From a virus (Duplodnaviria > Heunggongvirae > Uroviricota > Caudoviricetes): a stretch of 20,597 nucleotides of DNA. The translations under genes were made by a program, and so were the position numbers. Where the stretch lies: IMG/VR virus record IMGVR_UViG_2534681697_000013; one strand, given 5' to 3'. Positions 1-20,597 of the stretch are shown here, one piece after another; positions within the stretch are counted from its first letter, which is position 1, and each line of letters opens with the position of its first letter. The notes below the pieces were generated by a model that was not told the DNA's origin, searched no databases, and saw only the letters and a program-made list of their open reading frames with translations.

Positions 1-291
1 TCCAGCCAGGGACTATTGAGTACGAACGCCATCGACTTACGCGTGCGCAGGCCGACGCACAGGAGCTGAAAAATGCCAGAGACTCCGCTGAAGTGGTGGA
101 AACCGCATTCTGTACTTTCGTGCTGTAGCGGATCGCAGGTGAAATTGCCAGTATTCTCGACGGGATCCCCCTGTCGGTGCAGCGGCGTTTTCCGGAACTG
201 GAAAACCGACATGTTGATTTCCTGAAACGGGATATCATCAAAGCCATGAACAAAGCAGCCGCGCTGGATGAACTGATACCGGGGTTGCTGA

Positions 292-317
<26 letters not shown>
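1..317 (+). pseudogene. nu1: Terminase small subunit gpNu1, 3' portion (5' end outside window), with in-frame TAG at 126..128
   Basis: Frame ending at TAA 315..317 reads [103 protein letters not shown], recognisably the lambda Nu1 C-terminus. Its 3' end overlaps the start of A as in lambda. Confidence 0.8.
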
Positions 318-3298
<2,981 letters not shown>

Positions 3299-3374
3299 AA
3301 CCCTTGCTGCGTCTGGAATGTCGTTTTCCATGCTTTTGATGACCGTTCATCACCCTTCCAGTTTTTCGCGGTTT

Positions 3375-3428
3375 TGTGTATTGCAATGTGTATTGCAAAT
3401 TGGCGATCGGGATGGGTGTGTATTGCAA
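3375..3428 (+). repeat. Three direct copies of TGTGTATTGCAA (3375..3386, 3387..3398, 3417..3428); candidate integrase arm-type sites
   Basis: Exact 12-mers between the left junction and the int start; two more copies sit just inside the right junction. Confidence 0.55.
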
Positions 3429-3446
3429 ATCTCTTGAGGGCTTTTA

Positions 3447-4688
3447 ATGGCTATTGAAAACAAACTCAGTGACAAACTGTTAAAGAGTCTTGTCGGAAAA
3501 CGGCAGGACAAACAAAAAACAATAGCGGATGGGCGCGGGTTGTCTGTGCGTGTAAGCATGGTTGGGGGGATCAGCTTTGTTTTTTACTATCGTCTTGGTG
3601 GCAGGGAATCCCCTCCGGTATGGCTTACACTTGGTCGCTATCCTGACATGTCTCTTGCAACGGCCAGGCGCATGCGTGATCAGTGCCGTGAATGGCTGGC
3701 TGAAAATCTGGACCCCCGCAGGCAAATAAAACTTGCTGCCGAAAAAACTATGCAACCAGTGACCGTAAGGGATGCGCTGTTTTACTGGTACGACAATCAC
3801 GCCACAACAGCCAGAAAAGAGCATGAATATTTAATAAAACGATTTGAAAAGCATATCTTCCCCTATATCGGTGATATGGCTATAGAACAGTGCAAATTAC
3901 ACACATGGCTTACCGTCTTTGACAGGATCAAAAAAAATGCGCCTGTTATGTCTGGTGCAATTTTTCTTGATATCAAACAGGCGTTGCGTTTTTGTCGCGT
4001 CAGGCAATACATCGCGTGCGATCCCTTTGGAGATATTAACGTAAGTTATGTCGGGCGCTCATCCGGTATAAGGGATCGCGTTCTTAATATCAATGAAACC
4101 GCTGATGTATGGTCTTATGCTTACGGTAATAATTTGCTAACTCTGTCATCAATATATAACCGAAGAATAATGGTTATCTGCTTGGTGTTTGGTTGCCGAC
4201 AGCAGGAGGCGAGGCTATCCACCTGGGACGAATGGGATTTAAAAAACTGGGTATGGACAGTCCCAAAAGAGCACAGCAAAAACAAGGAGGCTATAGTAAG
4301 GCCTGTTCCTGACGGAATAAAACAATGGATCGTTAATCTTTACGCAGAAACAAAAAATCGCGGTTATGTTGTCGGTTGTGCTTTGCAAAGGGCGACAATA
4401 ACAGGGGCTGCAAACAGAATATGCAGGCGTCTTGGTCATGATACTAATGGCTTGTGGTGCATACATGATTTCAGGCGCACATTTTCCACTACGCTTAATG
4501 ATATGGGGGCGGATCCTTATATTGTCGAACTTCTTTTAGGTCATAAAGTGAAAGGGGTTGCTGGTGTTTACAATAAAAGCAGGCATATAAAGAAAAAACT
4601 TGAGGTGCTTAATATGTGGGTTAATTACCTTAATACGATAGCAGGATTTAACAACAACGTTATCGAGCTTAATAAAGAGGTGGTGTGA
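3447..4688 (+). CDS. int: Tyrosine recombinase / integrase (P4-type), 413 aa
   Basis: ORF with upstream GAGGG; C-terminal HDFRRTF...LLGHK...GVAGVYNKS is the tyrosine recombinase catalytic region. AT-richer than the flanking lambda genes. Confidence 0.92.
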   Translation: MAIENKLSDKLLKSLVGKRQDKQKTIADGRGLSVRVSMVGGISFVFYYRLGGRESPPVWLTLGRYPDMSLATARRMRDQCREWLAENLDPRRQIKLAAEKTMQPVTVRDALFYWYDNHATTARKEHEYLIKRFEKHIFPYIGDMAIEQCKLHTWLTVFDRIKKNAPVMSGAIFLDIKQALRFCRVRQYIACDPFGDINVSYVGRSSGIRDRVLNINETADVWSYAYGNNLLTLSSIYNRRIMVICLVFGCRQQEARLSTWDEWDLKNWVWTVPKEHSKNKEAIVRPVPDGIKQWIVNLYAETKNRGYVVGCALQRATITGAANRICRRLGHDTNGLWCIHDFRRTFSTTLNDMGADPYIVELLLGHKVKGVAGVYNKSRHIKKKLEVLNMWVNYLNTIAGFNNNVIELNKEVV

Positions 4689-4689
4689 T

Positions 4690-4947
4690 ATGGCAATTTA
4701 TTCTCTTGTTGATGAAAACGATTTGCGCACAATGAAGGACATTGATCGGTTCATTCGTGAAAAAGAGTGCATAGCACTTACCACGCTGGCAAACTCAACA
4801 CGCTGGAAAATGGAGCAGGCAGGTAAATTCCCGCGACGTATCAAGATCGGTGAACGTGCTGCAGGGTATCGACTTTCAGAGGTTCAGGCATGGATCCGTG
4901 GTGAGTGGCATCCTGGATGGAAACCTGGAAAAACAAAACAGCAATAA
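4690..4947 (+). CDS. alpA: AlpA-family wHTH regulator / excisionase-like protein, 85 aa
   Basis: Starts 2 nt after int stop; motif IALTTLANSTRWKMEQAGKFPRRIKIGERAAGYRLSEVQAWI matches the AlpA family. Confidence 0.8.
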   Translation: MAIYSLVDENDLRTMKDIDRFIREKECIALTTLANSTRWKMEQAGKFPRRIKIGERAAGYRLSEVQAWIRGEWHPGWKPGKTKQQ

Positions 4948-4960
4948 CCAGTAAATAATG

Positions 4961-4983
4961 CCCCTCATCACGAGGGGTTTTTT
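4961..4983 (+). terminator. Intrinsic terminator after alpA
   Basis: Stem CCCCTC / GAGGGG with loop ATCAC, followed by TTTTTT. Confidence 0.7.
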
Positions 4984-5003
4984 GTCTATAAGGTAAAAAC
5001 GCG

Positions 5004-5582
5004 ATGAATAAAAATATTGCCGTGACGGGCAAGGGGTACGCTCGTCCAGTGAAAAAATTCTGCGATATTCGTGATCTCGTCGTTCTGCGCTTTGATAGTG
5101 TGAACGTTCGTGTGGTGTATCTGAACGGCGATCCGTGGTTTGTTGCAAAAGATGTTTGTGCTGCGCTGGAACTAACCAATTCGCGTACGGCGTTGCAGAT
5201 GCTTGATGATGATGAAAAGGGAGTAAATTTAACTTACACCCCAGGAGGAAATCAGAATATGAGAATTATCTCTGAGTCAGGTTTCTACAAACTAATAGCC
5301 CGCAGCCGCAAAGCAACGACGCCTGGCACATTTGCTCATCGTTTCAGTAACTGGGTATTCAGAAATGTGATACCAGGTATCAGAAAAACGGGGACTTATG
5401 GTATCCCGTGGGGTGCATTACAGGATTTTTCCCGCCGTAAAGAGCAATATCAAATAAGTGCCAGCGAGAAGGGGAGGGAGCTACAGGCATGTAAGCGCAA
5501 AAAGCGTGAGCTGGAGGAAGAAGAAAAAACGCTGATACGTGAATATCAGCCTGAGTTTTACTTTGGTAACCGCATTCAGTGA
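5004..5582 (+). CDS. Bro-N domain protein (antirepressor-like), 192 aa
   Basis: N-terminus VVYLNGDPWFVAKDVCAALELTNSRTALQMLDDDEKG...GGNQNMRIISESGFYKLIARSRKA matches the Bro-N family; C-terminus is a charged coiled-coil-like tail. Confidence 0.78.
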   Translation: MNKNIAVTGKGYARPVKKFCDIRDLVVLRFDSVNVRVVYLNGDPWFVAKDVCAALELTNSRTALQMLDDDEKGVNLTYTPGGNQNMRIISESGFYKLIARSRKATTPGTFAHRFSNWVFRNVIPGIRKTGTYGIPWGALQDFSRRKEQYQISASEKGRELQACKRKKRELEEEEKTLIREYQPEFYFGNRIQ

Positions 5583-5591
5583 CAAAACAAA

Positions 5592-5612
5592 GGCGACCGC
5601 AAAAGGGTCGCC
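5592..5612. terminator. Hairpin between convergent genes (possible bidirectional terminator)
   Basis: Stem GGCGACC / GGTCGCC, loop GCAAAAG. T-rich tract only on the minus-strand side; none on the plus side. Confidence 0.5.
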
Positions 5613-5678
5613 AGTGGGAACAAGGGAAAACAAAAGCATCACCAACAATGCCACATTTGCGGCTGGTGGGCAATGTGA

Positions 5679-5858
5679 TCAGTCAGATTTGGTTCGTTCC
5701 AAGGTTTGCAACGAGAGCTTTTTCCTGTGCTCTTTAAGGAATTTCTCAAGAGCAAACGAACAAGGTGCGAATCTTTCTGATTCATGTTCATGCGCTATAT
5801 TTTTGCGTCGTCTCTTACGAGTTGGTGATGGTGTTTTGGTTGATTCTGTGTCGCTCAT
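5679..5858 (-). CDS. Small basic hypothetical protein, 59 aa (below the ORF-track size cutoff)
   Basis: Minus ATG at 5858 to TGA at 5679 encodes MSDTESTKTPSPTRKRRRKNIAHEHESERFAPCSFALEKFLKEHRKKLSLQTLERTKSD; weak AGGA upstream; directly downstream of the 101-aa minus ORF. Confidence 0.3.
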   Translation of the reverse strand: MSDTESTKTPSPTRKRRRKNIAHEHESERFAPCSFALEKFLKEHRKKLSLQTLERTKSD

Positions 5859-5915
5859 GGTGCTGTCCTGTAAAGCAATGCGCCTGCGTTCCTCAAACTA
5901 TGGCGCTGATATTGG

Positions 5916-6221
5916 CTATTCATGCTCTTTGACCTTGCGTCGCTGGAGTTCTTCACGCGCGACGGTGACGAGTTGCCCGATCTCCTCGGCTGCTTTGATG
6001 CCGATTTGTTCGACCTTAGCCAGGGCATCCAGTGACGACACAAGGGGATTTTCTCCGCTGCCTTCTGCTTGGCGGCGGGCTATTTCTCCGCGCATGGCGG
6101 TTACGATAAATCCGGCATTGCTTTCACCGTCCAGCTTAACGGATTCCATCCCTTGCATAACATCTAGTGGGACTCTGACAGTTGTCAGTTGTGATTTTGC
6201 GTTTTTGTTAGCCGTTGCCAT
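5916..6221 (-). CDS. Hypothetical protein, 101 aa; possible ribbon-helix-helix-type regulator
   Basis: AGGAG 8 nt upstream of ATG; N-terminal QLTTVRVPLDVMQGMESVK resembles a beta-strand plus helix start. Transcribed divergently from the operator region. Function is inferred. Confidence 0.5.
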   Translation of the reverse strand: MATANKNAKSQLTTVRVPLDVMQGMESVKLDGESNAGFIVTAMRGEIARRQAEGSGENPLVSSLDALAKVEQIGIKAAEEIGQLVTVAREELQRRKVKEHE

Positions 6222-6242
6222 TTCTGAAACTCCTAATCATCG

Positions 6243-6320
6243 GTGTGTTTCAGTATACACAAAAAAAGAAATACAAAAAGCCTTGACGTGTGTTTCATGC
6301 GCTCATAACATGAAACACAC
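6243..6320. promoter_or_regulatory. Divergent promoter region with operator-like repeats (candidate genetic switch)
   Basis: Plus strand: TTGACG (6283..6288), 17 bp, TAACAT (6306..6311). Perfect 12-bp inverted repeat GTGTGTTTCATG (6288..6299) / CATGAAACACAC (6309..6320), plus a third half-site GTGTGTTTCA at 6243..6252 over a minus-strand TATACT -10 candidate (6252..6257). Confidence 0.5.
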
Positions 6321-6348
6321 CGAAAGGATTGTTGAAATACAAAGAGCA

Positions 6349-6382
6349 ACGCCCCGCAGTGCTGGGAACACATACGGGGCGT
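6349..6382 (+). other. Stem-loop in the 5' leader of the rightward operon
   Basis: 8-bp stem ACGCCCCG / CGGGGCGT with an 18-nt loop, no T tract after it; lies between the promoter and the first ORF. Confidence 0.35.
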
Positions 6383-6411
6383 CTAACCAACAACGTAAAC
6401 TAGGAGCCGTT

Positions 6412-6609
6412 ATGGTTGCTGTAAATCATATACCACACCTTGTACACACACAAACGGCCTTTGTGTGGCGTTTTCTGGCACTGAGTGCCGGAGAATCTCA
6501 AATCATCCACGTAACCGCCTGGACGGAACGCGAAGCGCGTAGCCGTTGCCCGTCCGGTTGTGTTGCTGTATTCGCTGCAAAAATCCGCCAGGGAGTGAGT
6601 CATGCTTAA
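6412..6609 (+). CDS. Hypothetical small protein, 65 aa
   Basis: AGGAG 5 nt upstream of ATG 6412; stop overlaps the next ORF start at 6602. It is the C-terminal frame of the otherwise implausible track ORF 5539..6609. Confidence 0.4.
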   Translation: MVAVNHIPHLVHTQTAFVWRFLALSAGESQIIHVTAWTEREARSRCPSGCVAVFAAKIRQGVSHA

Positions 6610-6787
6610 AACCTTCCGTGTATTTGCCCGAGCTGTTAACCCAATAGGCCACACAATTGGTATCGCTCAGAATGTGAAGGCTGTTAATGTTCAGACGGCT
6701 ATTGCTGCGGTGAGAAGCGAATCATCAGAATATGGCTTATCACAAGTCATTATTTCAGCAGTGTATGAATTAAAAGAGGTGCATTAA
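6602..6787 (+). CDS. Hypothetical protein, 61 aa
   Basis: GGAGTGAG upstream of ATG; overlapping, translationally coupled operon layout. Confidence 0.45.
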   Translation: MLKTFRVFARAVNPIGHTIGIAQNVKAVNVQTAIAAVRSESSEYGLSQVIISAVYELKEVH

Positions 6788-6978
6788 TGCAGGAAATTAC
6801 ATTACACGAAGCCGCTGAACGTGCGCACCAGACAGAAATTATTTGCCGCCTTCTTGAGGTATACCCGAACAAAATTACAGATGCTGATATATCCGCACTG
6901 GCGAGCCTACTGGCGCGTCTTTCGGGAAGTGTCGCTAGTTTTTTGATTGAGGAAGAAAGTAAGCTGGTGGGGGATTAA
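6787..6978 (+). CDS. Hypothetical protein, 63 aa
   Basis: AGAGGTG upstream of ATG; start overlaps the preceding ORF end. Confidence 0.45.
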   Translation: MQEITLHEAAERAHQTEIICRLLEVYPNKITDADISALASLLARLSGSVASFLIEEESKLVGD

Positions 6979-7200
6979 ATGAATACAGAACGGGAAGTCT
7001 TTTTTAAATTGTTAGCATGTGCAGAAAGTTCATTAACTTTAAATAATTCAGCAAAAGCAATATTAAATATGTGGCTTGATTGCATAAATGACAATGAAGA
7101 TGCAAATATTGCTTATGGCCTGTTGTCACTTATTGATGAATCAGCAGAAAAACTCAATGACGCAATAAATAGTGCCCTGCTATCAAATAAGTCGAGTTAA
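6979..7200 (+). CDS. Hypothetical protein, 73 aa (AT-rich gene)
   Basis: Starts right after the previous stop with GGGGGA upstream; markedly lower GC than its neighbours. Confidence 0.5.
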   Translation: MNTEREVFFKLLACAESSLTLNNSAKAILNMWLDCINDNEDANIAYGLLSLIDESAEKLNDAINSALLSNKSS

Positions 7201-7217
7201 GTCGAGGAATAAATAAT

Positions 7218-7517
7218 ATGGAAATGAAAAATTCTGGCTTTATTGCCAGCGGCCCCGCTCGACCTGAATTTATGAACGGCGATATTTACCGCGATAAATA
7301 CGGCGGCACGGTAACGATTAAAGGCGTGGCAGAACGGCGCATCACTTACCGCCGTGAGGGGTATAGCTATGACTGCGTGATGCCTGTTTATCAGTTCCGG
7401 CGTGATTTTTCCCTGGTATATGCCGCACCCCGCAGTAAGCCCATCAGCAGGGAAAAAGCGTGGGGAAATATCCAGAAAATGAAAACCATGATTAACGGAT
7501 TCAGAGGTAAAAAATGA
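7218..7517 (+). CDS. Hypothetical protein, 99 aa
   Basis: GAGGAA upstream of ATG; stop overlaps the primase start. Confidence 0.55.
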   Translation: MEMKNSGFIASGPARPEFMNGDIYRDKYGGTVTIKGVAERRITYRREGYSYDCVMPVYQFRRDFSLVYAAPRSKPISREKAWGNIQKMKTMINGFRGKK

Positions 7518-9268
7518 AACTGGCACCGAACGTAAAACAGCAGTCACGCGGCATAAAACACAAAGGAACAGAAGTAATTATTTTTGCGGGTAGTGATGCC
7601 TGGGCACACGCGAAACAATGGCAGGAACATGATGCGCGTATGGCCGGAGATAATGAGCCTCCTGTGTGGCTTGGGGAGCAGCAGCTATCCGAACTGGATA
7701 ATCTGCAAATTGTGCCGGAAGGCCGAAAATCAGCACGCATATACAGGGCCGGATATCTTGCGCCTGTAATGATAAAGGCGATTGGTCAGAAGCTGGCGGC
7801 AGCAGGCGTACAGGATGCAAATTTTTATCCTGAGGGTATGCACGGCCAGGAGGTGCAGAACTGGCGCGAATATCTGGCCCGTGAACGCCAGAATCTTTCT
7901 GATGGTCTGGTCATTGAGCTTCCGGTAAAGCAAAAGGCGCAACTTTCGCAGATGGCGGACAGTGAGCGCGCGCAGTTGCTTGCCGATCGCTTTGATGGCG
8001 TTTGCGTACATCCTGAAAGTGAAATCGTTCACGTATGGCGCGGCGGGGTATGGTGTCCGGTCAGCACAATGGAACTTAGCCGCGAAATGGTGGCGATCTA
8101 TTCAGAGCACAGGGCCACTTTCAGCAAGCGCGTAATCAATAACGCCGTGGAAGCGTTAAAAGTTATTGCCGAACCAATGGGCGAGCCGTCTGGCGATTTG
8201 CTGCCGTTCGCCAATGGTGCGCTTGACCTGAAAACGGGGGAATTTTCCCCGCACACGCCGGAGAACTGGATCACCACGCACAACGGCATTGAGTACACGC
8301 CACCAGCACCAGGGGAGAACATCCGCGATAACGCGCCAAACTTTCATAAATGGCTTGAGCACGCAGCCGGAAAAGACCCGCGCAAGATGATGCGTATATG
8401 TGCCGCGCTGTACATGATTATGGCGAACCGGTACGACTGGCAGATGTTTATTGAGGCCACCGGAGACGGCGGGAGCGGTAAAAGTACATTCACACACATA
8501 GCCAGCCTTCTGGCAGGGAAACAGAACACGGTAAGCGCTGAAATGACATCGCTTGATGATGCTGGTGGACGTGCGCAGGTTGTCGGGAGTCGTCTTATCG
8601 TCCTGGCTGACCAGCCGAAATATACAGGCGAAGGAACGGGCATCAAGAAAATCACAGGCGGCGACCCCGTGGAAATTAACCCGAAATATGAAAAGCGTTT
8701 CACGGCGGTAATCAGGGCGGTGGTGCTGGCGACCAACAACAACCCGATGATATTCACCGAACGGGCCGGAGGTGTGGCACGTCGTCGCGTGATTTTCCGT
8801 TTCGACAATATCGTCAGTGAGGCCGAAAAAGACAGGGAGCTACCGGAAAAGATTGCGGCTGAAATCCCCGTTATTATCCGCCGATTGCTGGCGAACTTTA
8901 CCGACCCTGAGAAGGCACGGGCTTTACTACTGGAACAGCGTGACGGTGATGAAGCACTGGCAATAAAGCAACAGACGGATCCGGTTATTGAGTTTTGCCA
9001 GTTCCTGAATTTTCTGGAGGAAGCGCGCGGCCTGATGATGGGTGGCGGTGGTGATTCAGTGAAGTACACGACCAGGAACAGCCTTTACCGCGTCTATCTG
9101 GCGTTTATGGCATACGCGGGCAGGAGCAAACCGCTAAACGTGGCTGAGTTCAGCAAGGCCATGAAGCCAGCGGCGAAAGTTTACGGGCATGAATATATTA
9201 CGCGAAAAGTTAAGGGAGTAACGCAGACCAACGCAATTACAACAGACGATTGCGACGCGTTTTTATAA
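7514..9268 (+). CDS. Primase-helicase (P4 alpha-type), 584 aa
   Basis: Walker A GDGGSGKST and downstream helicase-like region; last gene of the small-ORF operon and followed directly by iterons. Confidence 0.88.
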   Translation: MKLAPNVKQQSRGIKHKGTEVIIFAGSDAWAHAKQWQEHDARMAGDNEPPVWLGEQQLSELDNLQIVPEGRKSARIYRAGYLAPVMIKAIGQKLAAAGVQDANFYPEGMHGQEVQNWREYLARERQNLSDGLVIELPVKQKAQLSQMADSERAQLLADRFDGVCVHPESEIVHVWRGGVWCPVSTMELSREMVAIYSEHRATFSKRVINNAVEALKVIAEPMGEPSGDLLPFANGALDLKTGEFSPHTPENWITTHNGIEYTPPAPGENIRDNAPNFHKWLEHAAGKDPRKMMRICAALYMIMANRYDWQMFIEATGDGGSGKSTFTHIASLLAGKQNTVSAEMTSLDDAGGRAQVVGSRLIVLADQPKYTGEGTGIKKITGGDPVEINPKYEKRFTAVIRAVVLATNNNPMIFTERAGGVARRRVIFRFDNIVSEAEKDRELPEKIAAEIPVIIRRLLANFTDPEKARALLLEQRDGDEALAIKQQTDPVIEFCQFLNFLEEARGLMMGGGGDSVKYTTRNSLYRVYLAFMAYAGRSKPLNVAEFSKAMKPAAKVYGHEYITRKVKGVTQTNAITTDDCDAFL

Positions 9269-9281
9269 TTTTTTGTAAAAG

Positions 9282-9503
9282 CCATCTACCCCATCTACCT
9301 GAACGAAATAAACGCATATTATTCAACATGATAAGTGGGTATAGGGCTAGGTAGAAGGCTAATAAAAGCTCTCTACCTCTTCTACCTGATTTTATCAGTT
9401 TCAGGTAGCAGGGTAGACGGCAGGTAGAGGAGTCAAAAAAGCTATCTACCCGCTGAAAGCGGCGCCATTACTGACATGATGAGCATTCGGGTAGATGGGT
9501 AGA
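9282..9503. repeat. Iteron cluster with AT-rich core; candidate replication origin
   Basis: (C)CATCTACC-type repeats on the plus strand at 9284, 9293, 9371, 9381, 9444 and inverted GGTAGA copies at 9350, 9404, 9412, 9423, 9490, 9498; terminal blocks CCATCTACCCCATCTACC and GGGTAGATGGGTAGAGG mirror each other; AT-rich stretch around 9300..9345. Confidence 0.6.
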
Positions 9504-9553
9504 GGGGGGGAGGCACAACTAAAAACTTTTTAAACGAGGGGGGGTGAAAATAA

Positions 9554-9868
9554 ATGCGCATACATAAAAATCACTTAACAAACATGCCAGCCGAAAACAT
9601 GAATCAGGGGCGACAAATGACCAAAATTCGCAGAGACAGAACACAGGCAAAATATAAAGCGTTAGACATGACAGAGCTTTCCTTAAAGGTGGCAATCAAA
9701 GCGATAGACCACCACACACGGGCAGGATACGCGAAGGAACATCCCGACCTGATAAGCGCATTCATGACCACAGCAGCGGCAAACTTTGCCACGCTGACAG
9801 AACGGGAGATTGCCGAAGCGGAACAGGTGACAACCATCAATGTTAAAACCGGAGAGCAGACAGCATGA
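9554..9868 (+). CDS. Hypothetical protein, 104 aa (true start may be a downstream Met)
   Basis: ORF after a G-rich Shine-Dalgarno-like tract; stop overlaps the SSB-like gene start (ATGA). Confidence 0.5.
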   Translation: MRIHKNHLTNMPAENMNQGRQMTKIRRDRTQAKYKALDMTELSLKVAIKAIDHHTRAGYAKEHPDLISAFMTTAAANFATLTEREIAEAEQVTTINVKTGEQTA

Positions 9869-10287
9869 CAGCACAGATAGCGGCTTACGGGCGGCTGGTG
9901 GCTGACCCGCAGTTAAAGACCACCAGCAAAGGGACACAAATGGCGATGGCGAGTATGGCGGTTCCCCTGCCGTGCAGCCAGGCAGATGACGGAACGGCGA
10001 CGATGTGGTTATCCGTCCTGGCGTTTGGCAGACAGGCCGACGCACTGGCAAAACACCACAAAGGCGAACTGGTGAGCGTGGCGGGTAACATGCAGGTAAG
10101 CCAGTGGACAGGCCAGAACGGCGAAACGCGGCGGGGCTGGCAGGTTATCGCAGACAGCGTAATCAGTGCGCGAACGGCGCGACCGGGCGGCAAAAAAGGC
10201 CAGCAGGGGCAGGCCACTGACGCACTGAACAGGGCAAAACAACAGTCGGGGAATGATGATCCGTACGGCGATAATATACCGTTTTAA
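9865..10287 (+). CDS. ssb: Single-stranded DNA-binding protein-like, 140 aa
   Basis: OB-fold-like core WLSVLAFGRQADALAKHHKGELVSVAGNMQVSQWTGQNGETRRGWQVIADSV, Gly/Gln-rich linker and a C-terminal ...DDPYGDNIPF tail resembling the SSB DDDIPF tip. Confidence 0.7.
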   Translation: MTAQIAAYGRLVADPQLKTTSKGTQMAMASMAVPLPCSQADDGTATMWLSVLAFGRQADALAKHHKGELVSVAGNMQVSQWTGQNGETRRGWQVIADSVISARTARPGGKKGQQGQATDALNRAKQQSGNDDPYGDNIPF

Positions 10288-10304
10288 ATTCTGCAAACAA
10301 AAAG

Positions 10305-10333
10305 ATGCCGGAAAAAAATAGATTTTCCGGCAT
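10305..10333. terminator. Strong hairpin after the SSB-like gene (putative terminator)
   Basis: Perfect 11-bp stem ATGCCGGAAAA / TTTTCCGGCAT with a 7-nt loop; no clear T tract after it, so terminator function is uncertain. Confidence 0.4.
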
Positions 10334-10498
10334 GCTACATAAATCCCGACCAAAGGAAGTAAATACATTAACACGAATTATCAGCACTGAAGTTGTTACG
10401 GCATATTTTATACAACATTGCACTTGGTTGCATGTGTTCGCATAGCAGACATCGGTAATAGAATATATTCACAATTATTTGTAATGAATGTAAAGAGG

Positions 10499-11545
10499 AT
10501 GAGTATGGTTGATTTATATTCGCCTACACAGCTTGTGCAGGTGGCTAATGCTGAAGATGTGCAAAAAAATTAAATGCGTTGTTTACCAGTTTGTTTTTCA
10601 CTCGCTCGGTAATGTTTGAATCGAGAGACATTATTCTTGATACGATCGACGATCCAAATATCCCGATCGCGGCGTTTTGCTCTCCTATGGTGGGCAGTAA
10701 AGTTTCACGAGATGAGGGATACGAATCAAAAACAATTCGTCCAGGTTATATGAAGCCGAAAAGCAGCATTGATCCAAATAAGTTAGCTGTGCAGCCCTGC
10801 TGGTGTGTCACCTGAGCAATACAATGCTTTTGGGGCGCGTAATATTAAAGTTAAACAGGCGATTGTAAATCAGGCTAAAGCTATTCGTGCACGTATTGAA
10901 TGGCTTGCTGTTCAGGCAATCACAACGGGGAAAAATATCATTGAGGGCGATGGTATTGAACGTTATGAGCTGGACTGGAATATAAAACCACAAAATATCA
11001 TCACTCAGTCTGGCGGTACTGAGTGGTCAGGTAAGGATAAAGAAACTTTTGATCCAAATGATGATATTGAGAGCTACGCAGAATTTAGTGAGGGCGTCAC
11101 TAATATCATCATTATGGGTGGTAATGTATGGAAGAAATACCGTTCATTCAGAGCGATAAAAGAGGCTTTGGATACCCGTCGTGGTTCTAATTCCGAACTG
11201 GAAACGGCCCTTAAAGACCTTGGTGATTCGGTGAGTTTTAAAGGGTATATGGGCGATGTTGCGATTGTTGTTTACAGCGGGCGTTATACCGACGAGGACG
11301 GAACAGAAAAACATTTCCTTGATCCTGATTTGATGGTGCTTGGCAATACGGCTCTTCAGGGGATTGTCGCCTATGGCGGTATTCAGGATCCGGAGCTAAT
11401 CCGAATGGGGCTGACTAAAGCCGAACTTGCACCGAAAAACTATATTGTGCCTGGTGATCCGGCTATTGAATATGTGCAGACACATTCAGCACCACAGCCA
11501 ATACCGGCCCGCATCAATCGTTTTGTTACCGTTCGCATTGGCTAA
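10499..11545 (+). pseudogene. Major capsid protein gene (lambda gpE-like), disrupted by two frameshifts
   Basis: Three consecutive frames each align with successive parts of gpE. First: MSMVDLYSPTQLVQVANAEDVQKN*, stopping at 10571. Second, to 10815: KKLNALFTSLFFTRSV...PGYMKPKSSIDPNKLAVQP. Third, 10805..11545: ...ITQSGGTEWSGKDKETFDPNDDIESY...DTRRGSNSELETALKDLG...GDVAIVVYSG.... The breaks sit in an A7 run (10563..10569) and a CCC run (10795..10797). Confidence 0.75.
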
Positions 11546-11554
11546 GGGGGAGCA

Positions 11555-11896
11555 ATGGCTACTCATTACACTGAACTCATGGCTGGCACTGAAGCACTGG
11601 TGACTACGCTGGGGATATTTTCAGCTAATAAAGGGGTAATTCCTGCATTTACGCCACTGATGCAGGAAGATGCAACAGGTGCACTGGTGGTATGGGATGG
11701 TTCGAGCGTAGGTAAAGCGGTTTATGTTTCCGCTGTACAAATCGACACCGCGAAAAAAACACAGGCTCAGGTCTATAAGACAGGTGTCTTAAATGTTGAT
11801 GCTCTGAACTGGCCTGAGTCTGTTAAAGAACTGTCAGTAAAGGTTGCAGCGTTTGTTGGCTCAGGTATTTCTGTTCAGCCGCTGGCTCGTGTGTAA
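11555..11896 (+). CDS. Head decoration protein (lambda gpD-like), 113 aa, apparently intact
   Basis: AAGGGGGA upstream of ATG. LVVWDGSSVGKAVYVSAV, VYKTGVLNVDALNWPE and AAFVGSGISV parallel the gpD motifs [34 protein letters not shown] and [10 protein letters not shown]. Confidence 0.72.
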   Translation: MATHYTELMAGTEALVTTLGIFSANKGVIPAFTPLMQEDATGALVVWDGSSVGKAVYVSAVQIDTAKKTQAQVYKTGVLNVDALNWPESVKELSVKVAAFVGSGISVQPLARV

Positions 11897-11907
11897 AGGG
11901 GGATACA

Positions 11908-12291
11908 ATGCAGAATGATTACAATGACCTTAAGCCAATTGCCGAAATGATGTACCCGAATCCAGCTGTAGAGGAATTAAAAGCTATCGCTGACAAAATG
12001 TGTTTAAGCGAGCGCCTTGTTGATATGAATCAGGTGATGGAAATTACAACCCTGAGTCGTCGTACACTGCTAAACCTTGAGGCTAGTGGAGAGTTCCCGG
12101 AGCGTGTGCAGGTTACGGAAGGGCGTAAGGCCTGGTATTTAAGTGAAGTGATCGACTGGATAAATAATATTCCTCGCGCTTCTGAATATTGCCGCGTACC
12201 TGTCCCAAAAAAGCCAGATGCGGCGCTATGCCTCAAGATTGAGCGTGTACGCCGCAATGCACGGGATGGTCGCTATAAGCTGATTGGTTGA
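11908..12291 (+). CDS. AlpA/MerR-type wHTH DNA-binding protein, 127 aa
   Basis: AGGGGGA upstream of ATG; motif MNQVMEITTLSRRTLLNLEASGEFPERVQVTEGRKAWYLSEVIDWI matches the AlpA family. Sits between the decoration gene and cos. Confidence 0.6.
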   Translation: MQNDYNDLKPIAEMMYPNPAVEELKAIADKMCLSERLVDMNQVMEITTLSRRTLLNLEASGEFPERVQVTEGRKAWYLSEVIDWINNIPRASEYCRVPVPKKPDAALCLKIERVRRNARDGRYKLIG

Positions 12292-12343
12292 TGAAATTAG
12301 GGCCCGCTCTGGCTGGCGGGTCCTTTCCGGTGATCCGGTAGGC

Positions 12344-12381
12344 TACGGGGCGGCGACCTCGCGGGTTTTCGCTATTTATGA
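12344..12381. other. cos site: lambda-type cosN (cohesive-end 12-mer GGGCGGCGACCT at 12348..12359)
   Basis: TACGGGGCGGCGACCTCGCGGGTTTTCGCTATTTATGA matches the lambda cosN region; downstream sequence up to the small terminase gene differs from lambda cosB. Confidence 0.75.
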
Positions 12382-12492
12382 GCCTTTTTCGGGTGCTGGT
12401 GGTGGTTTTGTTGTTCGCTCTATCTCTATGAATAAAAAGGAAAAGATAAAGCCAATACACCAACCTGAAACATTACTTAAGTGGGGATATTG

Positions 12493-13035
12493 ATGAAATC
12501 GCACCTGATGAACAAAAAAAACATGGCGCAAAGCTGCCGTGTAAGTGCGACAGCGTTCGACAAGTGGGGAGTGACTCCCGTTGAACGTAAAGGCCGCGAG
12601 GCGTTTTATGATGTTGCCAGCGTAATAGACAATCGGGTTAGCAATGCAATTAACCAGATTACAGACGACAAAGGCGAGATTGATGATGATGAACTCCTAC
12701 GAGTCAGGATCAGATTGCTGACAGCACAGGCAGAGGCGCAGGAGCTTAAAAACGAGCGCGAACGCGGCGACGTTATTGATACAGCGTTTTGTATATACGT
12801 GCTTTCAAAATTGGCGAGTCAGATTTCTTCAATCATGGACAGCCTGCCGCTTGCCATGACAAGGAAGTTTCCCGACATGAAGCCGTCTATGCTGGATGGA
12901 CTGAAAAAAGAAGTTATCAGAGCCTGTAACGCATGCGCAAAACTTGACGAAAACATACCGCTGATGCTGTCCGATTATCTGATGGAAACTGCCGGAAACG
13001 TACCGGATAAGTTGCAGCCGAATAAAGATAAGTAA
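12493..13035 (+). CDS. Terminase small subunit homologue (Nu1-like), about 180 aa; start could instead be 12481 (GTG) or 12508 (ATG)
   Basis: LLTAQAEAQELKNERERGDVIDTAFCIYVLSKLASQISSIMDSLPLAMTRKFPDMKPSMLDGLKKEVIRACNACAKLDENIPLMLSDYL parallels the Nu1 C-terminal half in this window; N-terminus MNKKNMAQ... parallels Nu1 MEVNKKQLA...; immediately downstream of cos. Confidence 0.8.
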   Translation: MKSHLMNKKNMAQSCRVSATAFDKWGVTPVERKGREAFYDVASVIDNRVSNAINQITDDKGEIDDDELLRVRIRLLTAQAEAQELKNERERGDVIDTAFCIYVLSKLASQISSIMDSLPLAMTRKFPDMKPSMLDGLKKEVIRACNACAKLDENIPLMLSDYLMETAGNVPDKLQPNKDK

Positions 13036-13046
13036 CGTAGTACGCT

Positions 13047-13328
13047 ATGACTGAATCCGAAATACTGCGATTAATCCGCCGTGCTTGTGGAATCAGCAAG
13101 CAGCATGACGAACAGGCCACGCAGCCGGACAGCGTGACCGCAGATAATTATGTGCGTGTAGTGGCTGAGGTGATGCGCCGTGACGGTATTGAGCTTAACG
13201 GCGTGGATATGCGCAACATACGAACAAGAGTCCTTGAGTTGCTGGCATATCGTCGCCGTTCTCAACAACGGAGGGAGAGCGCGAAAAATACTTACCAGTG
13301 GAAGAAGCCGGAACGATTGCGGCGGTAA
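13047..13328 (+). CDS. Hypothetical protein, 93 aa
   Basis: ORF 12 nt after the small terminase stop; no strong Shine-Dalgarno; function unknown. Confidence 0.45.
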   Translation: MTESEILRLIRRACGISKQHDEQATQPDSVTADNYVRVVAEVMRRDGIELNGVDMRNIRTRVLELLAYRRRSQQRRESAKNTYQWKKPERLRR

Positions 13329-13579
13329 CTTGCTGATATTCCCGATAACGCAAAATTGCGCTGGCTGACTTGTTGCATTGCAAAAAGTTAAGCAGGAAGG
13401 CACGGCCTGTAAGATGGGATGCAGTAAGTAGTTCAAGGCTACCTTGTGCTGGCACGCACAGTTAAGCCGTCGGTGCTGGATATCCCCCACTGGGGGAAAA
13501 GCTGGCTACATCCCTCACATCTGAGGACTGATAACGCGACATTGCGCTGGCTGGCAAAGTGCAAAATTGCACGATGGCC

Positions 13580-13726
13580 TAACCCATTGATTATTTCGAA
13601 AACCTGCAATGCAGGAAATCGGGGAAGTAAGCCTAAGCTATTGATTGTTTCGAAAACCCCCATTGGGGGATGTCGGGAAAGTAAGACTAACCCATTGATT
13701 CTTCCACAATCCTCAATTTGAGGAGG
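13580..13726. repeat. Tandem direct repeats of about 54 bp (2.5 copies), each with a short inverted repeat
   Basis: Units begin TAACCCATTGATTATTTCGAAAACC, TAAGCTATTGATTGTTTCGAAAACC and TAACCCATTGATTCTTCC; each contains a small palindrome (CTGCAATGCAG, CCCCCATTGGGGG, CCTCAATTTGAGG) and ends GG(G)AAGTAAG(C/A)C. Confidence 0.55.
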
Positions 13727-14041
13727 CCGGAACGTCTACATAGCTGCATCGCCGTAATGATGATTCAGCCCACCAGCCAAATCAGCACAGCAACGACAGA
13801 ATAGCCCGACACAGAAAAACCACGAATATGGGGTTTTTGTTATGACATGGTCATGATGACCACTCATACAAAACAGGTAAAGCCCACCAGCCTGATTAAA
13901 GGTTAACCGGAAAAAAGCCAGGTATCCAATCTCGATATGGGGATCCCTATATCGACATTAACGCCCACTAAAACTGTGCATATATGCATAGAAAAAGCAT
14001 CCACCAGCTTTATGACGGATGCCGCTCATCTTATAAATAAT

Positions 14042-14065
14042 CGTGTATTGCAGTGTGTATTGCGA
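14042..14065 (+). repeat. Two direct copies of (C/T)GTGTATTGC(A/G) (14042..14052, 14054..14065); candidate arm-type sites at the right end
   Basis: Same motif and orientation as the three copies upstream of int. Confidence 0.5.
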
Positions 14066-14137
14066 CTCCTTTAAACGATAGGTCTGAGCATTCGTAATGT
14101 ACTGTTTTTAAATTTTATTTTTTCCTGTCTTTTCATA

Positions 14138-14145
14138 AAGGCGAT
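14138..14145. other. Right junction core (attR-like) AAGGCGAT
   Basis: Direct repeat of 3239..3246; portal-like sequence resumes in frame immediately after. Confidence 0.6.
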
Positions 14146-14917
14146 GTATGCCGCCACCATTGAGAGTGAGCTGGATACGCAGTCAGCGATGGATTTTATT
14201 CTGGGCGCGAACAGTAAGGAGCAGCGGGACAAGCTGACCGGCTGGATTGGTGAAATTGCCGCGTATTACGCCGCAGCACCGGTCCGTCTGGGAGGCGCAA
14301 AAGTGCCGCACCTGATGCCGGGGGACTCACTGAACCTGCAGACGGCTCAGGACACGGATAACGGCTACTCCGTGTTTGAGCAGTCACTGTTGCGGTATAT
14401 CGCTGCCGGGCTGGGTGTCTCGTATGAGCAGCTTTCCCGGAATTACGCCCAGATGAGCTACTCCACGGCACGGGCCAGTGCGAACGAGTCGTGGGCGTAC
14501 TTTATGGGGCGGCGAAAATTCGTCGCATCCCGTCAGGCGAGCCAGATGTTTCTGTGCTGGCTGGAAGAGGCCATCGTTCGCCGCGTGGTGACGTTACCTT
14601 CAAAAGCGCGTTTCAGCTTTCAGGAAGCCCGCAGCGCCTGGGGGAACTGTGACTGGATAGGCTCCGGTCGTATGGCCATCGATGGTCTGAAAGAAGTACA
14701 GGAAGCGGTGATGCTGATAGAAGCCGGACTGAGTACCTACGAGAAAGAGTGCGCAAAACGCGGTGACGACTATCAGGAAATTTTTGCCCAGCAGGTCCGT
14801 GAAACGATGGAGCGCCGTGCAGCCGGTCTTAAACCGCCCGCCTGGGCGGCTGCGGCATTTGAATCCGGACTGCGACAATCAACAGAGGAGGAGAAGAGTG
14901 ACAGCAGAGCTGCGTAA
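14138..14917 (+). pseudogene. B: Portal protein gpB, C-terminal part (portal reading frame resumes at 14146)
   Basis: Translation (KA)MYAATIESELDTQSAMDFILGANSKEQRDKLTGWIGEIAAYY...GLRQSTEEEKSDSRAA* is the portal C-terminus; the last 20 nt overlap the GTG start of C. Confidence 0.9.
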
Positions 14918-16217
14918 TCTCCCGCATATTGCCAGCATGGCTTTTAATGAGCCGCTGATGCTTGAACCCGCCTATGCGCGGGTTTTCTTTTGTGCGCTTG
15001 CAGGCCAGCTTGGGATCAGCCGCCTGACGGATGCGGTGTCCGGTGACAGCCTGACTGCCGGAGAGGCACCCGCGACGCTGGCGTTATCCGTTAATGATGA
15101 CGGACCACGACAGGCCCGCAGTTATCAGGTCATGAACGGCATCGCCGTGCTGCCGGTTTCCGGCACGCTGGTCAGCCGGACGCGGGCGCTGCAGCCGTAT
15201 TCGGGGATGACCGGTTACAACGGCATTATCGCCCGTCTGCAACAGGCTGCCAGCGACCCGATGGTGGACGGCATTCTGCTGGATATGGACACGCCCGGCG
15301 GAATGGTGGCAGGGGCATTTGACTGCGCTGACATCATCGCCCGTGTGCGTGACATAAAGCCGGTATGGGCGCTGGCCAATGACATGAACTGCAGCGCAGG
15401 TCAGCTGCTTGCCAGTGCCGCCTCCCGGCGTCTGGTCACGCAGACCGCCCGGACAGGCTCCATCGGCGTCATGATGGCTCACAGTAATTACGGTGCTGCG
15501 CTGGAGAAACAGGGCGTGGAAATCACGCTGATTTACAGCGGCAGCCATAAGGTGGATGGCAACCCCTACAGCCATCTACCGGATGATGTCCGGGAAACAC
15601 TGCAGTCCCGGATGGATGCAACCCGCCGGATGTTTGCACAGAAGGTGTCGGCATATACCGGCCTGTCCGTGCAGGCTGTGCTGGATACCGAGGCTGCAGT
15701 GTACAGCGGTCAGGAGGCCATTGATGCCGGACTGGCTGATGAACTTGTTAACAGTACCGATGCGATCACCGTCATGCGTGATGCACTGGATGCACGTAAA
15801 TCCCGTCTCTCAGGAGGGCGAATGACCAAAGAGACTCAATCAACAACTGTTTCAGCCACTGCTTCGCAGGCTGACGTTACTGGCGTGGTGCAAGCGACGG
15901 AGGGCGAGAACGCCAGCGCTGCGCAGCCGGACGTGAACGCGCAGATCACCGCAGCGGTTGCGGCAGAAAACAGTCGCATTATGGGGATCCTCAACTGTGA
16001 GGAGGCTCACGGACGCGAAGAACAGGCACGCGTGCTGGCCGAAACCCCTGGTATGACCGTGGAAACGGCCCGCCGCATTCTGGCAGCTGCACCACAGAGT
16101 GCACAGGCGCGCAGTGACACTGCGCTGGATCGTCTGATGCAGGGGGCACCGGCACCGCTGGCTGCAGGTAACCCGGCATCTGATGCCGTTAACGATTTGC
16201 TGAACACACCAGTGTAA
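14898..16217 (+). CDS. C: Head protease / scaffold protein (lambda gpC-like), 439 aa, GTG start
   Basis: VTAELRNLPHIASMAFNEPLMLEPAYARVFF...NDLLNTPV*. The track ORF 14763..16217 extends upstream only because of an in-frame upstream start. Confidence 0.94.
   Translation: MTAELRNLPHIASMAFNEPLMLEPAYARVFFCALAGQLGISRLTDAVSGDSLTAGEAPATLALSVNDDGPRQARSYQVMNGIAVLPVSGTLVSRTRALQPYSGMTGYNGIIARLQQAASDPMVDGILLDMDTPGGMVAGAFDCADIIARVRDIKPVWALANDMNCSAGQLLASAASRRLVTQTARTGSIGVMMAHSNYGAALEKQGVEITLIYSGSHKVDGNPYSHLPDDVRETLQSRMDATRRMFAQKVSAYTGLSVQAVLDTEAAVYSGQEAIDAGLADELVNSTDAITVMRDALDARKSRLSGGRMTKETQSTTVSATASQADVTGVVQATEGENASAAQPDVNAQITAAVAAENSRIMGILNCEEAHGREEQARVLAETPGMTVETARRILAAAPQSAQARSDTALDRLMQGAPAPLAAGNPASDAVNDLLNTPV
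15612..16217 (+). CDS. nu3: Scaffold protein gpNu3 (in-frame internal start within C), 201 aa
   Basis: ATG at 15612 in the C frame gives a 606-nt ORF, the nested arrangement known from lambda; no independent sequence evidence beyond position. Confidence 0.7.
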   Translation: MDATRRMFAQKVSAYTGLSVQAVLDTEAAVYSGQEAIDAGLADELVNSTDAITVMRDALDARKSRLSGGRMTKETQSTTVSATASQADVTGVVQATEGENASAAQPDVNAQITAAVAAENSRIMGILNCEEAHGREEQARVLAETPGMTVETARRILAAAPQSAQARSDTALDRLMQGAPAPLAAGNPASDAVNDLLNTPV

Positions 16218-16226
16218 GGGATGTTT

Positions 16227-16471
16227 ATGACGAGCAAAGAAACCTTTACCCATTACCAGCCGCTGGGCAACAGTGACCCGGCTCATACCGCAACCGCGCC
16301 CGGCGGATTGAGTGCGAAAGCGCCTGCAATGACCCCGCTGATGCCGGACACCTCCACCCGTTCTACAAGTCCGGCACGTTCCGTTATGAGGATGTGCTCT
16401 GGCCGGAGGCTGCCAGCGATGAGACGAAAAAACGGACCGCGTTTGCCGGAACGGCAATCAGCATCCTTTAA
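16227..16471 (+). pseudogene. D: Head decoration protein gpD, frameshifted by an internal deletion
   Basis: N-terminal frame reads [43 protein letters not shown] then nonsense; the C-terminal segment [36 protein letters not shown] is in a different frame, from 16361. The locus is about 88 nt shorter than a 333-nt D gene. Confidence 0.75.
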
Positions 16472-16526: not shown

Positions 16527-17552
16527 ATGTCGATGTACACAACCGCCCAGCTGCTGGCGGCAAATGAGCAGAAATTTAAGTTTGATCCGCTGTTTCTGCG
16601 TCTCTTTTTCCGTGAGAGCTATCCCTTCACCACGGAGAAAGTCTATCTCTCACAAATTCCGGGACTGGTAAACATGGCGCTGTACGTTTCGCCGATTGTT
16701 TCCGGTGAGGTTATCCGTTCCCGTGGCGGATCCACCTCTGAATTTACACCGGGATATGTCAAGCCCAAGCATGAGGTGAATCCGCAGATGACCCTGCGTC
16801 GCCTGCCGGATGAAGATCCGCAGAATCTGGCGGACCCGGCTTACCGCCGCCGTCGCATCATCCTGCAGAACATGCGAGACGAAGAGCTGGCCATTGCTCA
16901 GGTCGAAGAGATGCAGGCCGTTTCTGCCGTGCTCAAGGGCAAATACACCATGACCGGTGAAGCCTTCGATCCGGTTGAGGTGGATATGGGCCGCAGTGCG
17001 GCGAACAACATCACGCAGTCCGGCGGCACGGAGTGGAGCAAGCGTGACAAGTCCACGTATGACCCGACCGACGATATCGAAGCCTACGCGCTGAACGCCA
17101 GCGGCGTGGTGAATATCATCGTGTTTGACCCGAAAGGCTGGGCGCTGTTCCGTTCCTTCAAAGCCGTCAGGGAGAAGCTGGATACCCGTCGCGGCTCTCA
17201 TTCCGAACTGGAGACAGCGGTAAAAGACCTGGGCAAAGCGGTGTCTTATAAGGGAATGTATGGCGATGTGGCCATCGTCGTGTATTCCGGACAGTACGTG
17301 GAAAACGGCGTCAAAAAGAACTTCCTGCCGGACAACACGATGGTGCTGGGTAACACTCATGCACGCGGTCTGCGCTCCTATGGCTGTATTCAGGATGCGG
17401 ATGCATTGAGTGAGGGTATTAATGCGTCTCCCCGTTATCCGAAAAACTGGAAGACATCCGGCGATCCGGCGCGAGAGTTCACCATGATTCAGTCAGCACC
17501 GCTGATGCTGCTGGCTGATCCTGATGAGTTCGTGGCCGTTCAACTGGCGTAA
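16527..17552 (+). CDS. E: Major capsid protein (lambda gpE-like), 341 aa
   Basis: MSMYTTAQLLAANEQKFKFDPLFLRLFFRESYPFTTEKVYLSQIPGLVNMALYVSPIVSG...DPDEFVAVQLA*; the track ORF starts at an upstream in-frame codon. Confidence 0.96.
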   Translation: MSMYTTAQLLAANEQKFKFDPLFLRLFFRESYPFTTEKVYLSQIPGLVNMALYVSPIVSGEVIRSRGGSTSEFTPGYVKPKHEVNPQMTLRRLPDEDPQNLADPAYRRRRIILQNMRDEELAIAQVEEMQAVSAVLKGKYTMTGEAFDPVEVDMGRSAANNITQSGGTEWSKRDKSTYDPTDDIEAYALNASGVVNIIVFDPKGWALFRSFKAVREKLDTRRGSHSELETAVKDLGKAVSYKGMYGDVAIVVYSGQYVENGVKKNFLPDNTMVLGNTHARGLRSYGCIQDADALSEGINASPRYPKNWKTSGDPAREFTMIQSAPLMLLADPDEFVAVQLA

Positions 17553-17593: not shown

Positions 17594-17603
17594 ATGACGA
17601 AAG
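17594..17603 (+). pseudogene. FI: Remnant of the gpFI gene: start codon plus about 3 codons, then the IS element
   Basis: GGAGGAG followed by ATGACGAAAG at the position expected for FI; the reading frame runs straight into the IS end GTAAGCGC. Confidence 0.55.
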
Positions 17604-17634
17604 TAAGCGCTCCGAGAAGTACGTAGCGTAAGGA

Positions 17635-19098
17635 TTATTTTACAGACGAGAAGTTCCAGGGCAGCAGTTCATGCACTTGGTTCGACGGCCAGTCATTGAG
17701 CTTCTCGATCACTTCGCGCAACCAGTCCTCCGGCTCCACTTCGTTCTGTTTGCAGGTGACCAGCAGACTGTAGATGATCGCCGCACTTTCTCCTCCCTTG
17801 TCTGAGCCGAAAAAGAGATAATTTTTTCTTCCAACCGCCACCGATCGTAACGCGTTTTCACCGATGTTGTTGTCTATTTCCACCCAGCCGTCACGACAGA
17901 ACTCGTTCAGCGCATTCCAGTGATTCAGGATATAGTCGAACGCCTTCGCCATCTCCGCATGTTTCGACAGCGTTTCCCTCTGCAACTGTATCCAGTCGTA
18001 CAACGACTGCATCAACTGGACGCTTCTGGCTTTTCTGACTGCAAGCCGTTCCTCTGCCGGACTGCCACGTATCTCCGCTTCTATGTCGTATAACTCTGCT
18101 ATCCGTCTGAGCGCTTCCTGAGTCATTTCTGTCGGACGGCGCACATCCTCGTCATGGATTTTTCGGCGGGCGTGGGCCAGGCACCCGGCTTCCTTCACCC
18201 GGCCCGTTTCGTACAGTACGTTATAACCTGCATAGGCATCAGCCTGCAGTACGCCCTGATACTTTGCCAGGTGGAGCTGCGGATGTTCTCCTTTGCGATC
18301 TGCCGAATACGCGAACCAGACGGCTGCCGGCAGGGATGAACCCGCATTACGATCATCCCTGACGTATACCCACAGACGACCCGTTTTCGTCTTTCCGTTC
18401 CCCGGGGCCAGTACTTTCACCGGAGTGTCATCTGCGTGCACCTTTCCTGCCTCCAGAACATAGTCATTCAGCGCTATATACAGAGGACGGAGTTTGTCTG
18501 CCATTTCTGATACCCAGCGCACCATGGTATTACGGCTCAGCTCCACGACCTGTCGCGCGTATATTTCTGACTGGCGATATAAAGGGATATGTTCCATATA
18601 TTTGCTGACCAGGATCCGTGCAAGTAACCCTGCACTGGCATAACCGCGTTCGATCGGTTTAGGGGGAAGTGGTGCCTGAACGATGACATCACACCGGCTA
18701 CAGGCCAGTTTGGGACGTATGGTTTCGATAACTTTAAAGGCGGTATTAATGATATCCAGTTGCTCTGAGATTGTTTCCCCCATTTCTTTCAGAACACCTC
18801 CACAGGCCGGGCAACTGGTTTCAGCAGGCAGAAGGCGATGTGTCTCCCGGGGAAGTTCTGCCGGCAGCGGTTTTCGTGAAGATTTTCGTCCCGGGGATTC
18901 AGGCTTACTGGCGATCGGGTTTTCTGACGGGGGACTGGTGTCAGGTGAATCTGTGACTGACGATGCATCTTCCAGAAGATTTCTGGCTGTGTTCAGCCGG
19001 TTTTCCAGTTCCGACAGTCGTTTTTCTGCCTGTCGGATCTGATTTTCAAGCTTATGACGCTTTTTCTCTGAACTCTGGCCGAACAGCATACGACGCAA
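17635..19098 (-). CDS. tnpC: IS66-family transposase TnpC, 487 aa as an uninterrupted ORF
   Basis: ...[29 protein letters not shown]..., with Cys-rich CPACGG and CSRCD motifs. The expected N-terminal about 30 codons ([31 protein letters not shown]) lie in another frame upstream. Confidence 0.88.
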
Positions 19099-19252
19099 CC
19101 TGTCGAGTTGCGCTTTCAGCCGTTCAATTTCCTGCTCATAGCCCGCGACCTGACAGCATACTGTCCAAGCCGACTCTGTTGCTTACGCACATGGCTTTAA
19201 GCAGCTCAATATCATCGGGGAGTTCATTGTTCATTCCTTGTTTTATCACGGG

Positions 19253-19600
19253 TTATATCCGGATGCCAGGCCGTTCTGTCCGTTTGGGATGTTGCCACGC
19301 GATCCCCTCCAGTAGCATGGATAACTGAGCTGGCGTCAGGTGCACTTTCCCTTCCCGGGTCACCGGCCAGACGAAGCGGCCCCGTTCCAGGCGTTTGGCG
19401 AACAGGCATAACCCGTCACGATCGGCCCACAGTATTTTCACCATTTTGCCACTACGGCCCCGGAAGACGAAGATATGCCCGGAGAACGGGTCATCTTTCA
19501 GCGTGTTCTGCACCTTCGAAGCCAGGCCATTGAAGCCACAACGCATATCTGTGATGCCAGCGATGATCCAGATTTTGGTACCGGTCGGCAGCGTTATCAT
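19253..19600 (-). CDS. tnpB: IS66-family TnpB (Orf2), 115 aa
   Basis: ...GHIFVFRGRSGKMVKILWADRDGLCLFAKRLERGRFVWP...LTPAQLSMLLEGIAWQ... is the IS66 Orf2 pattern. Confidence 0.88.
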   Translation of the reverse strand: MITLPTGTKIWIIAGITDMRCGFNGLASKVQNTLKDDPFSGHIFVFRGRSGKMVKILWADRDGLCLFAKRLERGRFVWPVTREGKVHLTPAQLSMLLEGIAWQHPKRTERPGIRI

Positions 19601-20271: not shown

Positions 20272-20354
20272 CGTTCGTGTCCATCAATATAGATGGGCGC
20301 GATTGTTGCCAGACAGGACAATTTTCACAAGACGTCGCTGATGGGGCGCTTACT

Positions 20355-20597
20355 TTACAGGTGTACTTCATCAATGTCTAACAATGACTTTTGAAGCACT
20401 TCAAAGACTGAACTATGGTCAAAGTCTTTGTTTTCTCGTGCAACTGAAATACCAGAGAAAGATTTACCATTCAATAAGCGTATAGTTATTTCTTGCTTGT
20501 AGTAGTCAAAAATCATCTCTTTGATAAATGACTTTATGGCAAGTTGTAGTTTGATACGTCCCTCTACAGTTTTCCGGTCACTGTCTTGGATATCATT
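20355..20597 (-). CDS. Hypothetical protein, C-terminal 80 codons (5' end outside window), low-GC DNA
   Basis: Minus-strand frame open from the window edge: ...NDIQDSDRKTVEGRIKLQLAIKSFIKEMIFDYYKQEITIRLLNGKSFSGISVARENKDFDHSSVFEVLQKSLLDIDEVHL*; stop lies 1 nt from the IS end. No start or Shine-Dalgarno is visible in the window. Confidence 0.35.
   Translation of the reverse strand, partial: NDIQDSDRKTVEGRIKLQLAIKSFIKEMIFDYYKQEITIRLLNGKSFSGISVARENKDFDHSSVFEVLQKSLLDIDEVHL

Follow-up and report, generated by a model that had tools for sequence, protein, structure and literature searches.

A lineage-private amber codon in the small terminase gene nu1 of a lambda-like prophage harboring a helper-embedded satellite

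The window (the whole 20,597-nt stretch of DNA analyzed) began inside nu1, the lambda-type small terminase (TerS) gene, of which the 3′-terminal 317 nt (codons 78 to 181) lay at 1–317 on the plus strand with 98.4% identity to lambda nu1 nt 230–546, and it continued on the same strand through a series of prophage head genes. The large terminase gene gpA (292–2217; 641 aa) was intact, as judged from its ORF and from PF05876/PF20454 matches on the identical protein; its GTG start overlapped the nu1 end by 26 nt, and it displayed 39 nucleotide but only three amino acid differences, with no internal stops, relative to the E. coli relative L001. The head-tail joining gene gpW (2214–2420) was likewise intact. 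Portal gene B was divided into two parts: a 5′ fragment (B nt 1–835; 2417–3251), delimited by alignment to the intact B of L011 and annotated as partial in L001, and a 3′ fragment (B nt 823–1602; 14138–14917). There followed the intact gpC (S49 protease/scaffold; 14898–16217), the decoration gene gpD (16227–16471) with an 88-bp frameshifting deletion at about 16358–16361, the intact major capsid gene gpE (16527–17552), and the first 10 nt of gene FI (17594–17603), all on the plus strand. Divergence of gpA, W, C, and E from L001 was mostly synonymous.

FI was cut by ISSfl3 (IS66 family; 17603–20353, minus strand), which was recognized from its Pfam IS66 domains, its 99.5% identity to annotated ISSfl3 copies, and its terminal repeats. 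The remaining 20356–20597 contained, instead of the FI continuation, part of an unrelated gene annotated as "recombinase family protein," which in 26 E. coli genomes lies elsewhere, and a rearrangement at this IS was therefore called; the arrangement indicates that this rearrangement at the right end of the window was probably IS-mediated. In the chromosome CP026875.1, the closest complete relative (99.96% identical), FI and the tail genes resumed past ISSfl3. The 88-bp gpD deletion was absent from CP026875.1 and was private to the genome of the window, or possibly an assembly artifact.

The interval between the two B fragments (3252–14137, plus strand) was occupied by a helper-embedded PICI satellite of about 10.9 kb, which was delineated by L001 annotation and Pfam matches and was bounded by a 13-bp direct repeat corresponding to B nt 823–835 at both junctions: the attL core AAGGCGATTTATG at 3239–3251 and the attR core AAGGCGATGTATG, with which the 3′ B fragment began, at 14138–14150 (12/13 bases identical). 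Its genes were arranged in the order integrase, AlpA, Bro-N, Icd-like, DUF4222, D5/DUF5906 primase, SSB, E-like capsid, D-like decoration, HTH, cos, and Nu1-like TerS. The integrase (3447–4688; PF00589, PF13356) was of the tyrosine type and stood with AlpA at the left end. The satellite was almost identical to the island of L001, and the prophage flanks were about 2% different; the satellite Bro-N gene (5004–5582; 192 aa) was intact in the window, and its L001 counterpart had a frameshift and a pseudogene annotation. The satellite major capsid gene (10505–11545, plus strand) was broken by a 1-bp deletion at about 10562 and a 1-bp insertion at about 10793, which were 231 bp apart and shifted the frame of the roughly 77 codons between them, where four internal stops arose. 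Since the same cut-short capsid ORF of 246 aa was called in CP026875.1 (L017), this lesion was inherited.

The late part of the satellite carried packaging determinants of its own: (i) the lambda-type cosN 12-mer GGGCGGCGACCT (12348–12359, plus strand), within 66 nt (12316–12381) showing 94% identity to the prophage cos region and preceded by a cosQ-like left flank, and (ii) a satellite TerS gene (12493–13035, plus strand), whose product had 38% identity to lambda Nu1 along its entire length, including the C-terminal region. The presence of cosN and an adjacent TerS suggests that the satellite may divert the gpA of its helper toward the satellite cos.

The helper-embedded PICI type has already been described, with the portal site type B:Phage_portal_2:241 among its insertion sites (PMC10111431; Tommasini, Mageeney & Williams 2023). 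When compared in architecture and in named portal site type, the satellite of the window shared with that family a left-end tyrosine integrase with AlpA, a Bro-N zone, primase/SSB, a late zone, direct-repeat att cores, and a position inside a lambda-type late gene with which it was co-oriented. It differed from the model element 11capE, which has no terS (PMC10111431), in carrying its own Nu1-like TerS plus cosN, in its frameshifted capsid gene, and in residing in a decayed helper. Other E. coli also carried related satellites, with a 411-aa integrase, a 606-aa primase, and capsid and decoration genes, immediately behind gene D (L010, 11724–13361; L014, 12126–13361); that of L010 interrupted the major capsid gene E, shortening it to 89 aa, and corresponds to the site type in E already described for the family.

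The sequence comparison of the terminase region was made with lambda nu1 (NC_001416, 191–736). Window 1–317 aligned to nu1 nt 230–546 without gaps (317/317 nt aligned) and with five differences, and the nu1/gpA layout (gpA GTG at 292, nu1 stop at 315–317) matched that of lambda (191–736/711–2636). Translation of window 3–317, the nu1 frame ending with TAA at 315–317, gave ...ETAFCTFVL, a stop, and then RIAGEIASILDG...EYIEQSG, the stop being a TAG at 126–128 (plus strand), i.e., nu1 codon 119. This codon was TCG (Ser) in lambda and in the relatives L001, L020, L022, and L018, and one transversion (C356A) accounted for the Ser119 TCG-to-TAG change. The product was thereby shortened to 118 residues with the loss of residues 119 to 181 (63 of 181), and PF07471 (Phage_Nu1) was still matched by the 118-aa product in the gene callers' record of the sibling contigs. 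The sequence-only reading had described an in-frame amber codon, derivable from TCG by a single-base change and costing about 63 codons, in the nu1 gene of a prophage, and alignment and translation bore out each of these points. The gene thus kept its homology to lambda nu1 and its position upstream of and overlapping gpA, and had no complete ORF reaching through the C-terminal TerL-binding region; going by its sequence, the window nu1 is a pseudogene of the Phage_Nu1 family rather than a working member.

Relative to lambda, the 98.4% identity held both over the 317 nt of the window and, in sibling contigs, over all 546 nt of nu1, at the same position overlapping the gpA start; apart from the amber codon, which ends the product after residue 118 of 181, the differences included Q70R and A74T in the sibling contigs and L133I in all copies including the window. 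The homologue was annotated in E. coli relatives as nohD or nohA ("DNA-packaging protein"), names given to Nu1 homologues of cryptic lambdoid prophages, and like these it belonged to a chromosomal prophage, such prophages being in varied stages of decay; the annotated noh copies were full length (181 aa), whereas the window nu1 had a lineage-private nonsense codon. A single-base TAG in a lambda morphogenesis gene also recalls the laboratory head-gene ambers propagated in suppressor hosts. An origin from a laboratory lambda amber mutant was rejected, given nine nu1 differences from lambda and a natural chromosomal context with insertion sequences and a satellite; the best phage matches were wild Stx1a and ECOR-derived phages (98.6%).

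Public assemblies were searched with the exact 641-aa gpA encoded at 292–2217, and 10 contigs carrying it were found, for which six places were listed (L002 to L007). All six had TAG at codon 119 and were otherwise identical in nu1; three came from NCBI (CP026875.1, a finished chromosome of 5.16 Mb, and two drafts), and the other three had been assembled from separate read runs (SRR4787083, DRR015921, and SRR3793777). Identity to the window was 100% over 6.2 kb in L003 and 5.4 kb in L005, and in CP026875.1 it was 100% over 1–2448 and 99.96% over about 10 kb. A wrong base at position 127 arising from sequencing or assembly, which the sequence-only reading had singled out as the finding that would undo its claim, is thereby effectively excluded: the 1-bp indels of the satellite capsid might hint at an error-prone assembly, a hint with nothing specific to position 127, but these frameshifts were also present in CP026875.1, and the TAG recurred in six independently assembled contigs, so that a base-call error carries a vanishingly small probability. 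The TAG is accordingly judged genuine and inherited within one lineage.

The distribution of the allele was surveyed with a 53-mer centered on position 127 and designed so that every 28-base seed spanned this position. None of the 5,426 complete E. coli genomes searched contained the amber 53-mer, nor did any of the 50,697 phage records, and the corresponding TCG 53-mer, which doubled as the positive control of the method, was found at 5,440 places in 3,956 complete E. coli genomes. An exact search of GTDB species-representative genomes with an amber 45-mer likewise gave no match. The exact 118-aa product was recorded on five contigs, and the full-length Ser119 version of the same haplotype in 108 blocks of the collection. 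Programmed recoding or read-through of the stop codon was rejected, because the stop was not conserved among homologues (the amber 53-mer occurred in none of these E. coli genomes or phage records, and the TCG form in 3,956 genomes). Across these collections the amber allele is, as far as the matches go, private to one lineage, and ISSfl3, the IS load, and the absence of the allele from RefSeq complete E. coli suggest that this lineage belongs to Shigella or close to it.

The nearest copies with intact nu1, namely L020 (CP026845.1) and L022/L018, had three differences from window 1–2448, one of them being position 127 itself, and nu1 downstream of the TAG had no change relative to the intact relatives; the mutation is therefore considered recent. 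The same observations bear on a suppressible or conditional amber, in which a suppressor tRNA of the host or of another prophage would allow full-length Nu1 still to be made. In its favor, the 63 codons downstream were unchanged and the base after TAG was C. A C at this position gives a weaker termination context. However, the unchanged codons are equally explained by recency (three differences in 2.4 kb), no tRNA gene was found in the window or in the sibling loci L002, L003, L004, and L017 (45 kb, nearby DNA only), the prophage was not laboratory lambda, and other lesions would block virions anyway; suppression is thus regarded as highly unlikely.

Other members of the group carried lesions of their own. 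In L020, nu1 was intact and gpA had a 1-bp deletion at about 6531 (equivalent to window position of about 1532), splitting it into products of 421 and 230 aa, and this is an independent terminase knock-out. CP026875.1 contained further insertion sequences, and its primase gene was split. An IS was present at the equivalent of window position 2448 in L020, L022, and L018, and also in L002 (6158–7448), and none was there in the window. The same IS type (ends CTGAGGGATCCCC... and CTGAGGAATCCCC...) was inserted at the same 9-bp target CCTTCTGGG (window 2440–2448, at the portal gene start) in CP026875.1, with opposite orientation, which identified independent insertions at an apparent hot spot; the objection that an IS common to CP026875.1 and the intact-nu1 relatives contradicts the lineage picture was rejected because of these opposite orientations. 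Different genes of the same prophage were thus disabled in different group members, which is the pattern expected of neutral decay.

As for function, lambda TerS binds cos DNA through its N-terminal helix-turn-helix and TerL through its C-terminal region (PMC9611059), and both terminase subunits are essential in vivo (PMC7229814). The 118-residue Nu1 fragment would keep the N-terminal DNA-binding part and lack the C-terminal gpA-binding region. By extension from the published work on lambda, such a fragment would be unable to recruit gpA, no terminase would form at the prophage's own cos, and the prophage DNA would stay uncut and unpackaged. Translation of gpA, whose overlapping start lies 165 nt downstream of the amber stop, might conceivably also be lowered by the early termination. 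For in-frame re-initiation at GTG 177 (46-aa ORF), no ribosome-binding site was evident in the sequence.

The retained N terminus raises the idea that the 118-aa fragment has a new function, for instance as a cosB-binding decoy acting against the packaging of superinfecting lambda-like phages. Residues K5 to Q23 of lambda TerS are needed for DNA binding (PMC9611059), and judged by this stretch the DNA-binding helix-turn-helix was kept, the N terminus in siblings being almost identical to that of lambda. Conservation in one lineage only, with no sign of selection, argues against a decoy, as does timing. In lambda, nu1 is a late gene, whose expression in a lysogen would not be expected. Such a new function is accordingly deemed extremely improbable.

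A selected loss of the helper TerS was also weighed, by which either the satellite would benefit (having its own cos and TerS, with gpA serving the satellite only) or the host would benefit (the prophage being disarmed). The cosN 12-mer of the satellite, its TerS with 38% identity to Nu1, and the intact gpA downstream are consistent with this. Yet the allele was restricted to one narrow lineage, and the same prophage-plus-satellite layout occurred in 48 complete E. coli genomes, none of which had the amber 53-mer, L001 (the one of the 48 examined) having an intact nu1; moreover, the satellite capsid was broken and FI was IS-cut in the same lineage, and a sister lineage had lost gpA instead, which fits random decay. 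Selected loss is therefore unlikely. It is a long shot, too, that loss of the helper TerS was non-neutral in the sense that the satellite TerS alone paired with gpA and the composite for a time packaged satellite DNA exclusively; if this were true, the helper prophage would have been turned into a dedicated satellite-transfer machine.

The preferred explanation, held with a probability of roughly 0.86, is a recent, neutral nonsense mutation, vertically inherited, within a lambda-like prophage undergoing decay in an E. coli/Shigella-type lineage rich in insertion sequences. The change in nu1 was disabling relative to intact homologues and was inherited, and independent lesions were found both in the same element and in its sister copies; the mutation would most likely be neutral, other lesions having made the prophage non-viable beforehand or soon afterward. 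Two counterpoints apply: the amber could have been the first, selectively relevant hit, and the element is not uniformly degraded, gpA, W, C, and E being intact. The sequence-only reading had left a choice between a natural nonsense mutation and a suppressible amber allele; the former was upheld by its occurrence in at least six assemblies of one lineage together with the other lesions, and the latter was not, there being no tRNA gene in the window and the 45 kb of sibling loci and no laboratory lambda origin.

The nu1 amber is thus ordinary pseudogenization and no special genetic signal. For annotation, nu1 of this lineage should carry a pseudogene label, and its prophage should be classed as defective and not inducible. 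The locus offers a small worked example of how lambda-like prophages in IS-rich Shigella-like genomes decay by differing hits in sister lineages: nu1 was hit by the amber here and gpA by a frameshift in one of the sisters, and several copies took up insertion sequences. The helper-embedded satellite, although of an element type already published, is the biologically more interesting object.
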